DNA of 64,000 nt from an uncultured archaeon (GTDB lineage Archaea > Micrarchaeota > Micrarchaeia > Micrarchaeales > CABMGC01): NCBI GenBank assembly GCA_963752955.1, contig CAVWAD010000007.1, positions 64,386-128,385 of the forward strand. Reading direction: 5' to 3'. Under the pieces are notes generated by a model, which saw only the letters and a program-made list of their open reading frames with translations, was not told the origin of the DNA and made no database searches. Position numbers and translations under genes: made by a program. Each line of letters opens with the position of its first letter. The first letter of the stretch is position 1. Positions 17,646-24,981 of this stretch are shown here, piece after piece.

Positions 17646-18890
17646 ATGAGGAGTAGCCCAATCTGCCTGCTGGCGCTTATCATGATTCTTGCCGGAGCGG
17701 GCGCGGCCTCAGGGACGACCGGCGCCGCGGCGGCTCCCCCGACCTGCCTCGTCCAGGGCACGAGCTACCCCTCCAACATGGTGGCGCTCGCGCTGCTCGC
17801 GCTGACGATGTCGTTCGACGTCGTGGCGATAGCGTACATAATAAACAAGCTCTTCCCCACCGCGGGGATAAGGGACTGGATCAACGCCGAGTACTGGGAG
17901 ATAGCTAAGACCGCGATGCTCATCGTGGGCATATACGCCGTGCTCACACTCCTGGGCAACGTGGCGGTGCTGATCGCCCCGCCAGGCCTTGTTTCCGCCG
18001 GCTCCACGACTTCGCAGGCCTCGTCCGCTTCCTCCGCCTCCTCCACGTCCCTGAACTTCGCTGGGATGGACGGGCTAGTCAACGGCGCCTGCACGTACCT
18101 GAGCGGAGAGACCGCGTTCACGGGCACGACGCTCAACTACCTCTTCGGGCTCTCCGAGGGCATCGGCGCGATCAAGAGCACGCAGGTCGCGATGAACACG
18201 CCGATACCCCTCGGCGCGTTCGGCATACCCGTGGAGTTCGACAGCGGCTTCTTCATGAGCATCTACTGGAACAACATGATCTCCTCAGAGGCGGGGCAGA
18301 GCACTTACCAGTCGATGACGAACGACCTCATCACGCTGGTGGTGGTGCCGGTGACCGTCGCGATGGAGGTGCAGATGACGCTGCTGCCGATACTCTTCGC
18401 CCTCGGGCTTGGCGCGCTCATACCCGCGGGCCTGTTCCTCAGGGCGTTCCCGTTCCTGAGGGGGATAGGCGGAACGCTGATCGCGATAGGCATAGGCGTA
18501 TCGCTGATATACCCCGCTACGCTCGTGCTCTTCAACGACCCGGTCACGGCCGCGCTCCAGGGCTCGGCCATACCTTCCGTGTCCAAGCAGGCGCCGGCCC
18601 TGCAGGTGCCGCAGTGCTCGGGCGACTTCGTCATCTGCGGCGCATCCGAAATAGTGTTCTCGGCGATCAGCCAATTTCCTGGCGGCGGGGGGGGCGGGGA
18701 CGCCATCCTGAGCATGCAGACCATCTTCCCGGCGCTCAACAACACCCTGTATTACAACTCGTACGTGCTCCTGCAGTTCTTCCTATTCATACTCGACCTG
18801 GCTATAATATTCCCCCTTGCGGACAACATAGCGAAGATGCTCGGGGGCAAGATAAGCCTTAGCATAGGAGGCAGGCTGAAGCTGGTCTAG
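17646..18890 (+). CDS. polytopic membrane protein, paralog 1 of 6 (VirB6/CedA-like role hypothesised)
   Basis: 414 aa from ATG 17646. Signal-like N-terminus, Ser/Ala-rich exposed segment, multiple TM helices. Family motif FLRAFPFLRGIGGTLIAIGIGVSLIYP and C-terminal ..PLADNIAKMLGG. Confidence 0.7.
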   Translation: MRSSPICLLALIMILAGAGAASGTTGAAAAPPTCLVQGTSYPSNMVALALLALTMSFDVVAIAYIINKLFPTAGIRDWINAEYWEIAKTAMLIVGIYAVLTLLGNVAVLIAPPGLVSAGSTTSQASSASSASSTSLNFAGMDGLVNGACTYLSGETAFTGTTLNYLFGLSEGIGAIKSTQVAMNTPIPLGAFGIPVEFDSGFFMSIYWNNMISSEAGQSTYQSMTNDLITLVVVPVTVAMEVQMTLLPILFALGLGALIPAGLFLRAFPFLRGIGGTLIAIGIGVSLIYPATLVLFNDPVTAALQGSAIPSVSKQAPALQVPQCSGDFVICGASEIVFSAISQFPGGGGGGDAILSMQTIFPALNNTLYYNSYVLLQFFLFILDLAIIFPLADNIAKMLGGKISLSIGGRLKLV

Positions 18891-18898
18891 GCGTTGGA

Positions 18899-20084
18899 AT
18901 GTTAACCGGATTCATGTTGCAGATGTGCGGCTTCGCCACGATAGACAGAGGCGACTGGATAAGCACGAGCATGCTGGTCGTGCTGCTGGCGGTAACGATC
19001 GCCGCGCTCGTGTACGCCGTCGGCAGCTTCCTTCCCCCCGAGAGGCGGGAGAAGATCAGGGGCGCGGTGAAGTACGAGATCGTCGAGGCCATGATCAGCC
19101 TGGTCATAATAATGGCGCTGATCCTCTTCGCCTCCTTCACGTGCAACGCAGGCGGCGCGCTCGTCGGGCAGAAGGGATACACCGACGTGTTCAACGCCGC
19201 GGACAACTACGTGGGCGGGCTGCTGTTCTCCAACGGCATGAGCGTCATGGGCAACATCTACAGCGTCTCCACGCGGTACGAGGTCGTCTCGAGCTTCTTC
19301 TTCGAGGTCGGTGAGACGATCTTCCCCGGGATTCCGACAGGTTTCGCCGGAACCGGCGGTGCAGCTCGCCATTCCGATAAGGGGGGCCGAGTTCTTCGTC
19401 AAGCTCTCCACGCTCTTCTCGACGGTCTACGGGACCATGATGGACTCCTCTTTCGGCGGGCTTTTCATACTCTACCTGCTGCTGAAGATAGTGGAGGCGT
19501 GCGCGCTCACTATAATACTCCCGACAGCGATCATCATGCGGTCGCTCTCGTTCGTGGGCCCGCAGCTGAGGAGGACGTCGAACCTCTTCCTGGCGATGGC
19601 GATAGGCTTCTACTTCGTCCTCCCGATGATGATCGTGCTAAATTCCTACGTCGCGGGCTGCCTGAACATCAAGACCGGGAGCGCGTCGGTCGCCTGCAGC
19701 TATCCCTTCTTCTCGACCTACCTGCAGAGCTACACCACCCTGACCGCGCCGTCGTCCCTGTTCACGACCGGCACCGCGTTCCCGGTCAACTCCGAGATCC
19801 TTCCGGGCTTCGCGACCGGGGCGAGCATACCCCTGAGCTTCTACAGTGCGGCGTTCCCGGGAAGCTGGGGCCAGAGTCTGAGCGAACTGCTGACCACCAT
19901 GACCGCGGGCCAGAGCGCGGCGCTGCAGTACGGCACGGAGGTGGCGGGATACCTGTTCCTCGGCATAGTGCTCATGGCCCTCGACCTGGGCGTCACGGCC
20001 GGGTTCATAATGGGGATCGCGAAGGGGCTCGATTCGATGAGCAGCGGCAACATGTTCGGCGGCGGGCCCTTCTTCGGTGGTTGA
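18899..20084 (+). pseudogene. polytopic membrane protein, paralog 2 of 6, with apparent +1 frameshift
   Basis: The N-terminal part is in the frame of ORF 18899 (to about ..PTGFAGTGGA). The remainder is in the frame of ORF 19311 (..AEFFVKLSTLF...IMRSLSFVGPQLRRTSNLFLAMAIGFYFVLP...IAKGLD). The junction is between about 19340 and 19386; a G6 run at 19381-19386 is a plausible indel site. Confidence 0.65.
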
Positions 20085-23889: not shown

Positions 23890-23898
23890 GGTGGGAAT

Positions 23899-24981
23899 GT
23901 GCGCAAGACAACTATCGTCTCCGCTTTCGCGGCGGCCCTGCTGCTTCTGGCGGGGATCAGCTGCGCGCAGGGCACGACCCAGTGCCAGGCGGAGGGCACG
24001 GCGAACGTGCTCGCGCCGTGGTACTGCAGCCAGGTAAACCAGGCGGTTGCGGGGGAGTGGCAGGCGTGGGCGCCCCTCGCCTTCATAACCATCTCCCTGG
24101 CGTTCCTGGTCGCGGCCGCCATATTCATGATAGGGACGGCGATGAGGAACGACAAGGTGAGGAACTTCGGGGTCGGCGAGCTCTACGAGGCCGCGGCCAC
24201 CGCCCTGATAGCCGTCCTCTTCCTCACGCTCGCGGCGACCCTCTTCGGGATCGTGCCGGCGTTCGTCACCGGGCCGGTGAACCCCTACGCGACCTCGCTC
24301 ACGTACATAAGCAACACCGCCACCTCAACGCAGGGGGTCGTGAAGAACCTCTACGGCATATTCATGATAGACATGTACTACGCCTCCATAGAGGTGGACG
24401 TCACCGTGGCCGGGAACGCCTACGCGGGGAGCCTGAGCAAGATATTCAACAGCCTGACGCCCGCCGTCTCCTGGCTCTTCATCCTCCCCGCGGAGGCGGT
24501 GGGCAGGCTGCTGGTCGACGGGCTGATGGCGCTCTCGGCGGAGTTCTACCTGATACTGTTCTTCATGTACCTGGCGATACCGGTGTTCCTGATCCCCGGC
24601 ATAATACTCAGGGCGATCTTCCCGCTGAGGGGCGTCGGCGGGATGATGATAGCGCTCGCGATATCCTTCTACCTGGTGCTGCCCCTGCTCTTCTCCGTCG
24701 CGTACTATTTCACTAACACCAGCGTCATCGGTTCTCTGCAGGCCTCCGCGGCGGCGCTGGAGGTGCACGGCAAGGGCGCCCTGGCCCAGACCAACGCGGC
24801 GACGCCGACGGCGCCTCTGGTCACGGACGTGAACGGCCTGGAGAACGGCATGGGCGCGTACTTCCTGGCGGTCCTGGTCTACCCCGGGCTCGTGCTCGCG
24901 CTCTCCTACGTCGCGATGACGCAGATAGCCGAATTCATAGGCGGCGTCTCGAAGATGTCGGGCAAGATGAGGATGCTGTGA
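23899..24981 (+). CDS. polytopic membrane protein, paralog 6 of 6
   Basis: 360 aa (GTG start). Signal-like N-terminus. Motif ILRAIFPLRGVGGMMIALAISFYLVLP. C-terminal ..MTQIAEFIGG. Confidence 0.7.
   Translation: MRKTTIVSAFAAALLLLAGISCAQGTTQCQAEGTANVLAPWYCSQVNQAVAGEWQAWAPLAFITISLAFLVAAAIFMIGTAMRNDKVRNFGVGELYEAAATALIAVLFLTLAATLFGIVPAFVTGPVNPYATSLTYISNTATSTQGVVKNLYGIFMIDMYYASIEVDVTVAGNAYAGSLSKIFNSLTPAVSWLFILPAEAVGRLLVDGLMALSAEFYLILFFMYLAIPVFLIPGIILRAIFPLRGVGGMMIALAISFYLVLPLLFSVAYYFTNTSVIGSLQASAAALEVHGKGALAQTNAATPTAPLVTDVNGLENGMGAYFLAVLVYPGLVLALSYVAMTQIAEFIGGVSKMSGKMRML

Follow-up and report, generated by a model that had tools for sequence, protein, structure and literature searches.

Six adjacent genes, here designated g1 to g6, occupy positions 17646–24981 of the forward strand in a stretch of 64,000 nucleotides (subsequently termed the window) from contig CAVWAD010000007.1 of an uncultured member of the Micrarchaeota. 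They are true, very old and non-redundant paralogues encoding one family of membrane proteins with five predicted transmembrane segments (TMs). The array is part of an operon of 12 genes, roughly 14 kb in length, which is annotated only as ‘hypothetical protein’ and also encodes a P-loop ATPase and a pilin-like small protein. On balance, we lean towards the view that the six proteins represent the CedA/VirB6-equivalent platform of a machine resembling the Ced system and type IV secretion systems (T4SSs), i.e. that they work like, and are probably distantly related to, CedA and VirB6.

Paralogy and fixed order of the six genes

The original prediction for this DNA had described the six genes as tandem paralogues of a polytopic membrane protein, a claim to be checked by alignment and by hidden Markov models (HMMs). 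Pairwise BLASTP among the six proteins detected weak and short matches, which were always colinear around a shared motif, and pairwise identity between the paralogues is ~20–27%. Orthologue families were gathered from ~80 related loci and compared profile against profile using hhalign. All 15 pairs of the six families scored with 96.8–99.5% probability (E-values from 2e-10 to 3e-23), whereas comparisons of the g1–g6 families with four control families of membrane proteins from the same locus yielded less than 4%. In addition, the family HMMs detect members of the other families, e.g. with an E-value of 1e-20. Since all family pairs score high, the control membrane families stay below 4% and the HMMs cross-detect, the similarity is not compositional, and the predicted paralogy of all six is borne out.

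The opposing view, according to which unrelated hydrophobic proteins share the motifs through mere coincidence of composition, or the family is a known transporter, could draw on the low pairwise identity and on the wealth of TMs in these proteins. We give it practically no weight. Coincidence is at odds with profile-profile E-values down to 3e-23 alongside clean negative controls taken from TM proteins of the same locus, and with the colinear architecture of all six; no transporter family was matched in Pfam or NCBIfam. Chance similarity and membership in a known transporter family were ruled out on these grounds. Recent tandem duplication was likewise rejected: at only ~20% identity, the paralogues show no sign of it or of gene conversion.

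The family has so far been seen only in Micrarchaeota, as judged from the best 150 of 2977 clusters (50% identity) that an exhaustive profile search retrieved at E≤1e-3; all named clusters among these 150 belong to Micrarchaeota. Another homologue search, based on a mixed alignment, for the most part retrieved the g6 and g2 families once more. Close homologues of g6 number 89, all assigned to Micrarchaeota or without a name, and a scan of one genome per species identified relatives in 133 genomes. The genomes listed are metagenome-assembled genomes (MAGs) of Micrarchaeota or evident mislabels, plus that of the cultured Candidatus Micrarchaeum sp. A_DKE. Gene order was compared across ~80 Micrarchaeota loci, that of A_DKE included. 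Wherever the contig allows, the gene for the pilin-like protein is followed by those for a 640-aa protein (in part of the genomes) and a 281-aa protein, g1 to g6, and the genes for a 276-aa protein, a 274-aa protein and a 500-aa ATPase. Exactly one copy each of g1 to g6, in this order, is present in 64 of 80 loci, and every exception coincides with a contig end or a split open reading frame (ORF). This wider operon had been overlooked originally. Two contigs of the MAG MAS3.bin65 (loci L070 and L079) each carry a copy of the array, so that the bin is mixed or the genome holds the array twice; no other case hinted at a second locus in a genome.

All six genes are encoded on the plus strand. Gene g1 (17646–18890; 414 aa) encodes a protein with a signal peptide, five TMs and a Ser/Ala-rich outside loop, the motif FLRAFPFLRGIGG and the tail NIAKMLGG. 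The product of g2 (18899–20084; ~396 aa when repaired, see below) is devoid of a signal peptide, carries the most divergent motif, IMRSLSFVGPQLRRTSN, and ends with GIAKGLD. Gene g3 (20077–21585) codes for 502 aa when translated from a GTG codon and for 499 aa from the first ATG; its product possesses a signal peptide, the largest outside loops of the six, the motif ILRATFFTRRLGG and the tail LSKLFGG. The g4 protein (21593–22876; 427 aa) combines a signal peptide with a Cys-rich outside loop containing 7 Cys residues, the motif LLRSFPWTRAAGG and the tail AIAKLLGA. Gene g5 (22873–23889; 338 aa), which overlaps g4 by 4 nt, encodes a protein without signal peptide, with the motif IARIFAVTRSFGG and a deviant tail. 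Finally, g6 (23899–24981; 360 aa) specifies a protein with signal peptide, the motif ILRAIFPLRGVGG and the tail QIAEFIGG; it is the best conserved among the six paralogues.

The intergenic gaps within the array measure 1–9 nt or are replaced by small overlaps, an arrangement compatible with a single operon. Third-position GC content of the six ORFs is 0.85–0.91, as is typical of genuine genes in this DNA, and the minus-strand ORFs overlapping the array display mirrored codon-position GC, the pattern expected of antisense shadows. All motif strings quoted in the original prediction were found in the translations. The motif and the C-terminal tail, described there as shared, are indeed present across the six, but g2 has SN in place of GG and the consensus tail is not kept in g5.

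Gene g2 had been taken as a single open frame, but is broken by a frameshift in the window: its N-terminal part (18899–~19300) and its C-terminal part (~19359–20084) sit in different frames. Orthologues of g2 are intact and comprise ~390–420 aa. The ATPase gene of the operon (26729–28236) contains two frameshifts, at ~27143 and at ~27445–27452, and similar splitting of genes is seen in L064, the locus of the closest relative. Further broken genes of the window encode a CDC48-like AAA ATPase (36147–38389), which is in at least four pieces, and a FlaI/T2SSE-type ATPase (60074–61649). As the g2 orthologues are intact and the ATPase and CDC48 genes are broken as well, the frameshift in g2 is likely an assembly error; a pseudogene is conceivable, though less likely. 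The many broken genes suggest indel errors of a long-read assembly rather than biology.

Predicted topology and exposed loops

The topology of all six proteins was predicted from hydropathy and from the counts of Lys and Arg residues. The same architecture emerged for each of them: TM1, a short K/R-rich loop, TM2, a long loop, TM3, an R-rich loop, TM4, a further long loop, TM5 and a short basic tail. The loop following TM2 comprises 75–134 aa, is poor in Lys and Arg and contains Cys or Ser/Thr residues. The loop between TM3 and TM4 is short and carries the signature R-x5-R-x2-GG. On the basis of the positive-inside rule, the proteins are predicted to expose their N-termini and both long loops to the outside, and to retain the motif loop, the tail and thus the C-terminus inside the cell. 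Signal-peptide-like N-termini were confirmed for g1, g3, g4 and g6; g2 and g5 are without, in agreement with the four-to-two division proposed initially.

Conservation follows this topology. Within each of the six orthologue families, conservation amounts to 0.65–0.90 in the inside motif loop versus 0.21–0.49 in the outside loops, and the inside tail likewise ranks among the best conserved parts. The original prediction had placed the motif loop in the cytoplasm and had expected the exposed inserts to be variable and to diverge more than the TM core; these expectations are supported. Outside loop 2 of g3 varies between 76 and 316 aa across orthologues, and immunoglobulin-like (Ig), PKD or SprB domains reside in the N-terminal or loop regions of some relatives. 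An alignment of g6 orthologues revealed an invariant C..WYC in the N-terminal outside segment. Divergence, length variation, added domains and the C..WYC element of g6 all agree with a location of the long loops outside the cell.

A structural model of g6 generated with AlphaFold2 (predicted local distance difference test (pLDDT) score 81; predicted template-modelling score (pTM) 0.71) is all-helical and contains helices of 43–54 residues. As such helices are too long to be accommodated within the membrane alone, they must project beyond it. Some lineages possess N-terminal extensions, which enlarge g6 to 516–566 aa and other paralogues up to 992 aa, several of them with Ig, PKD or SprB repeats. 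Extended members were observed in loci L072 (Candidatus Micrarchaeum A_DKE), L041, L049, L075, L078 and L081 (proteins P0125, P0128, P0221 and P0226). The extensions are lineage-specific decorations of the exposed side.

Two explanations had been offered initially for this pattern, namely a hetero-oligomeric channel or platform built from diverged copies, or a set of alternative surface-exposed modules. In the latter case, the six proteins would be interchangeable, serving antigenic or host-range variation, with only one or a few of them in use at once on a shared base. This idea is in line with outside loops that diverge fastest, vary in length and acquire Ig, PKD or SprB domains in some lineages, and tandem pilin and VirB6 arrays of some symbionts have been discussed in these terms (PMC12102498, PMC7648143). 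However, interchangeable modules would hardly be retained as a set of six with invariant order and 1:1 orthologues throughout the phylum. Each paralogue also keeps its identity, e.g. only g2 and g5 lack the signal peptide in the window, the paralogues give no sign of recent duplication or gene conversion, and the genes are tightly packed in an operon-like manner. Because copy number, order and 1:1 orthology are invariant, we rejected this explanation, which appears improbable to us. The strictness of the six-copy invariance and of the 1:1 orthology argues for non-redundant subunits rather than interchangeable modules. A hetero-oligomeric channel or platform is thus favoured by copy number, fixed order and orthology, but not proven.

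Neighbouring genes and a candidate translocation machine

All 18,950 models of NCBIfam were scanned against 107 family members. The CedA model (NF041796) matched more members than any other model, namely 3 of 107, with a best E-value of 5.3e-6 per protein, corresponding to ~6e-4 when corrected for 107 scans. No other model matched more than two members or performed better than E 0.0018. The CedA matches were traced to orthologues of g4, including those of L072 (A_DKE), which provided the best score (26.2 bits), and of L041. They cover positions 102–243 of the 259 residues of CedA, comprising TM3, the motif loop, TM4 and TM5, and correspond to residues 251–401 of g4 in the window.

The last gene of the operon (26729–28236, plus strand; ~500 aa when repaired) encodes an ATPase of the HerA/VirB4 superfamily; conservation within the operon is highest in this gene (67–93% identity). 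In Pfam, its product matches DUF87, AAA_10 and the TraG P-loop domain above the cut-offs. The best NCBIfam families, all far below cut-off, are CedD (2e-20), CedB (2e-18), the VirB4 families (~1e-16) and HerA (5e-16). Matches in the PDB comprise HerA proteins and the C-terminal domain of VirB4 (4ag5), which aligns over residues 56–329. Models of TraC, VirB4 and CedB align to residues ~36–370 of the ATPase, which correspond only to the C-terminal ATPase half of VirB4 and CedB. The protein thus contains an FtsK-HerA-type P-loop domain of the extent seen in VirB4, and scans of Pfam and NCBIfam detected no VirB4 N-terminal domain (CagE_TrbE_VirB) in it.

Two genes on the plus strand separate the ATPase gene from the array. 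Their products, the 276-aa protein (25024–25854) and the 274-aa protein (25863–26687), each consist of a TM hairpin at the N-terminus followed by a soluble domain of ~210–220 aa, which is of alpha/beta type in the latter. They are paralogues of each other (hhalign 96.4%, E 1.4e-9), and their soluble domains are predicted to be cytoplasmic. An AlphaFold2 model of the 274-aa protein (pLDDT 77.6) was compared structurally with the PDB. The top four among 350,542 chains were TrwK/VirB4 of the R388 T4SS, with probabilities of 0.95–0.80, E-values of 0.15–0.24 and a template-modelling (TM) score of 0.38 over 186 columns. At the sequence level, the 274-aa protein gave no match: its profile yielded noise against PDB sequences and nothing against VirB4 of R388. 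Judging from the model, the 274-aa protein is a candidate for a membrane-anchored adaptor resembling the N-terminal domain of VirB4, and this domain may be supplied in trans by the 276-aa and 274-aa proteins.

The pilin-like protein (13904–14290, plus strand; 128 aa) features a signal peptide and two hydrophobic helices connected by a short basic loop. Its gene is found upstream of the array in at least 35 loci, sometimes duplicated. Like the VirB2/TrbC/TedC pilins, it combines a signal peptide with a mature part of ~100 aa that contains both hydrophobic helices, and by architecture and context it is a candidate for a VirB2/TedC-type pilin. In a 36-member alignment of this family, one Cys near the mature N-terminus and another one at the last or nearly last position are invariant; a disulfide joining both ends could mimic the head-to-tail cyclisation of T-pilin and TrbC. 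The N-terminal hairpin of g2 resembles the pilin-like family of the locus (hhalign 85.5% probability, E 5.7e-6), and the corresponding hairpin of the g5 orthologue in L041 weakly resembles a pilin-like protein from an integrative and conjugative element of Mycoplasma (E 0.005).

Two further membrane proteins are encoded upstream of g1 on the plus strand. The gene of the 640-aa polytopic protein (14297–16219) follows the pilin-like gene; its product has a C-terminal non-membrane domain and matched nothing in Pfam or NCBIfam. An orthologue occupies the same position in at least 23 loci, although not every genome has one. Many N-x-S/T sequons are present in the C-terminal part of the translation. 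Together with a large polytopic DUF2079 protein (11269–12843), it flanks the pilin-like protein, and both may serve the system as enzymes of the envelope or of glycosylation. The 281-aa polytopic protein (16759–17604) is encoded directly upstream of g1 wherever this flank is available. It does not belong to the family of the six paralogues (hhalign against g1–g6 below 4%), and its sole match was a sub-threshold one to the BPSS1780 family. Profiles of the 274-aa, 276-aa, pilin-like and 281-aa proteins matched none of the single VirB2, VirB3, VirB4, VirB5 and VirB8 sequences of R388, a comparison of low power, as even the operon's ATPase scored only 20% against TrwK.

Several independent, individually weak signals, namely the CedA core, the VirB4 fold, the ATPase families, the topology and the pilin hairpin, point in the same direction. 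Paralogy, the topology pattern, conservation of the operon and the ATPase superfamily are shown by the data, whereas the T4SS/Ced kinship of the membrane parts, the hetero-oligomer and the function are inferred. According to the favoured model, the six proteins would together form the membrane platform or channel of a Ced/T4SS-like translocation machine. This platform is probably a hetero-oligomer containing each paralogue once, which could be arranged as a pseudo-six-fold ring over a hexameric VirB4-like ATPase, which would be tethered to the membrane by the 276-aa and 274-aa adaptors. The R-x5-R-x2-GG loop and the IAKxLGG tail would serve as contact sites for the ATPase and these adaptors, while the long helices and variable outside loops would reach beyond the membrane to the S-layer and the host cell. 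The pilin-like protein may be assembled on the platform or extracted by it. Candidate substrates would be DNA, as in Ced, proteins or other host-derived material.

A number of observations weigh against such a kinship. The CedA matches reach 19–26 bits compared to a cut-off of 330 bits and are confined to 3 of the 107 members; besides, scores may be inflated when proteins are hydrophobic. Among the proteins of the window itself, g4 as well as g5 and g6 did not match the CedA model. The six window proteins had no real matches in NCBIfam or Pfam, none of the 107 family members had one in Pfam, and PF04610 in particular was matched by neither set at E≤1. A superfamily profile retrieved 0 matches among PDB sequences. 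When each family and the superfamily alignment were compared by hhalign with a shallow alignment of 13 VirB6 sequences of the MPF_T type, probabilities stayed below 1%, although remote homology might escape such an alignment. Foldseek searches with the g6 model detected no solved VirB6 (TrwI, R388) and nothing beyond helical-bundle noise in the PDB and in BFVD; a phage ‘TrbL’ entry at rank 37 (E 1.5) is not meaningful. As to the neighbours, the fold match of the 274-aa protein to VirB4 (E 0.15) is insignificant by E-value, the ATPase scores almost as well against HerA, and the pilin-like protein yielded only noise in Pfam, NCBIfam (such as SecE) and PDB as well as against TrwL. The comparison with CedA and VirB6 suggested by the original prediction had a mixed outcome: some g4 orthologues match CedA weakly and the topology is VirB6-like, but direct homology to VirB6/TrbL was not detected by Pfam, hhalign or Foldseek. 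As these searches found no match and the CedA scores are tiny relative to the cut-off, we refrain from assigning the six to VirB6/TrbL or to CedA.

These observations could also be accommodated by an envelope machine of a new kind, powered by an ATPase of the HerA/FtsK type and evolutionarily unrelated to T4SS or Ced, in which the six proteins form a membrane complex of undescribed fold. Such a machine might act e.g. in S-layer or cell-surface assembly, in lipid or nutrient uptake from the host or in cell division. It would explain why the six match neither Pfam nor PDB nor VirB6 profiles, why the ATPase scores comparably with HerA, why the pilin-like, 281-aa and 640-aa proteins are without known relatives and why every link to T4SS is below the usual thresholds. 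However, it leaves unexplained that the CedA matches fall on the conserved core, that VirB4 chains are the top four fold matches of the 274-aa protein, that CedD, CedB and VirB4 are the top families of the ATPase, that topology and conservation pattern are VirB6-like, and that a hairpin of the family, that of g2, resembles the pilin-like protein. We therefore consider a HerA-driven machine of this kind rather unlikely, though it deserves to be taken seriously, and continue to favour a Ced/T4SS-like platform.

Alternatively, the locus might not fulfil a host function but encode the apparatus by which a plasmid or an integrated conjugative element is transferred. Indeed, the ATPase resembles TraC/VirB4 of conjugative plasmids, as tblastn detected TraC/DUF87 genes in 1030 plasmids, 643 of which are conjugative, and a pilin-like gene is present. 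However, the same gene order recurs in the 133 species-representative genomes, the GC content of the operon equals that of its surroundings (0.60–0.63), and the operon is chromosomal, flanked by the housekeeping genes for MoxR and glutamine synthetase. Scans of part of the window's ORFs revealed neither a relaxase nor a coupling protein, nor an integrase or other mobility gene. A mobile element thus appears very improbable. With relaxase and coupling protein missing from these ORFs, there is no indication of classical conjugation, and a domesticated Ced-like role or an exchange of effectors or nutrients is likelier than plasmid conjugation.

It is still an open question how DPANN archaea attach to their hosts and draw material from these. 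The genomes concerned are small, yet all related loci retrieved, from 133 genomes, share the gene order of the 12-gene operon. Full-text literature searches found no description of it in Micrarchaeota or DPANN, and the papers on the two cultured Micrarchaeota, A_DKE and ARM-1, do not mention it. In Microcaldus ARM-1, cryo-electron tomography visualised a 21-nm barrel in the envelope of the micrarchaeon, which docks host nanotubes (PMC11329633); speculatively, this barrel-shaped docking platform is one candidate for the six-paralogue machine. That a phylum-specific machine, with a hetero-hexameric channel of one copy of each paralogue seated via the two adaptors on the VirB4-like ATPase, is the envelope structure by which Micrarchaeota exchange material with their hosts is a tempting but doubtful proposal. 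If true, it would be a DPANN counterpart of the T4SS of Patescibacteria, which is essential for epibiosis. Should the operon encode a Ced/T4SS-like translocon, the type IV secretion superfamily would, in its archaeal branch, reach as far as DPANN, with a rare fixed set of six paralogues for the channel subunit and a VirB4 split into an ATPase and membrane-anchored parts, and concrete targets would be available in the two cultured systems. Should kinship with T4SS fail, the operon would still encode a conserved, lineage-defining membrane machine.

Other features of the window were recorded as well. Between ~30000 and 36000, GC content drops to 0.53–0.56 as compared to 0.60–0.63 around; this stretch may be an acquired island beside a tRNA, tRNA-Gln(ctg) at 35288–35360 (minus strand), which lies within it. 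The small ORFs 30401–30793 (minus) and 34898–35260 (plus) appear PIN/VapC-like by eye. A cobalamin riboswitch (Rfam RF00174) was matched over the full model at 34369–34501 on the minus strand (33.5 bits versus a gathering threshold of 31.5 bits; E 8.7e-5), and the 946-aa ORF downstream of it (31114–33954, minus) has a sub-threshold match to a B12-binding domain and, in addition, a DnaJ domain. To our knowledge, cobalamin riboswitches are essentially unreported in archaea. A separate locus at 58921–63419, of type IV pilus or archaellum-like character, encodes a T2SSE-family ATPase (60690–61649) and a T2SSF-family membrane protein (62352–63419).

Comparison with Ced, VirB6 and secretion systems of symbionts

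The Ced DNA import and Ted systems of Crenarchaeota resemble the Micrarchaeota operon in that archaeal polytopic proteins (CedA, CedE, TedA) occur together with VirB4-like ATPases and a VirB2-like pilin. CedE possesses five TM helices (PMC11868833). The best family matches of the Micrarchaeota ATPase are CedD and CedB, and a pilin-like gene is present in the locus. Moreover, the N-terminus of CedA resembles a pilin, and a relation of CedA to CedA1 and of VirB6 to VirB2 has been put forward by Beltran et al. (PMC9905601); the N-terminal hairpins of g2 and of the g5 orthologue, which resemble pilin-like proteins, echo this. In contrast to Ced, which has one or two such proteins, six fixed paralogues are present here, and signal peptides and large outside loops are found in the Micrarchaeota proteins. 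The host is a DPANN symbiont rather than a crenarchaeon, and nothing here points to UV-induced DNA import.

The ATPase module is likewise comparable. In Ced, two ATPases are anchored by TMs, CedB and CedD, and the N-terminal domain of either one is similar to a portion of that of VirB4 (PMC11868833). The Micrarchaeota locus shares with VirB4 and CedB/CedD the FtsK-HerA P-loop ATPase with DUF87/AAA_10 signatures, and with CedB and CedD two different TM-anchored partners that putatively resemble N-terminal domains. It differs in that these two partners and the ATPase are encoded separately, giving three polypeptides.

VirB6 has a periplasmic N-terminus, five TM segments, a large periplasmic loop and a cytoplasmic C-terminus (PMC6120205), which equals the topology predicted for the six proteins. 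In VirB6 paralogues, conservation is found chiefly in the central TMs and in the cytoplasmic TM3–TM4 loop (PMC7648143), and it is also in this loop that conservation of the six peaks. Both groups are encoded beside a VirB4-type ATPase. However, the loop of VirB6 carries an invariant Trp, whereas the six have R-x5-R-x2-GG, with a Trp (PWTR) only in the g4 family. There is no match in sequence, profile or fold, and the Micrarchaeota system is archaeal and without VirB7 to VirB11 or outer-membrane parts.

Chromosomal T4SSs of Patescibacteria, also known as CPR, and VirB4-bearing giant proteins of the SPEARE type in Nanohaloarchaeota have been proposed to mediate host interaction (PMC12102498, PMC10266531). 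These are likewise secretion-like systems in the reduced genomes of ultra-small episymbionts, with adhesin-type repeats and VirB4-like ATPases. Yet the CPR system is recognisably of the MPF-FATA type, SPEARE is one giant fusion protein, and neither has a six-paralogue array. Tandem paralogues are known from the obligate intracellular Rickettsiales, in which four to five virB6 genes are arranged beside virB3–virB4 (PMC7648143). With tandem paralogues that bear surface-exposed extensions in obligate symbionts, these arrays are the nearest precedent for the six genes of Micrarchaeota.

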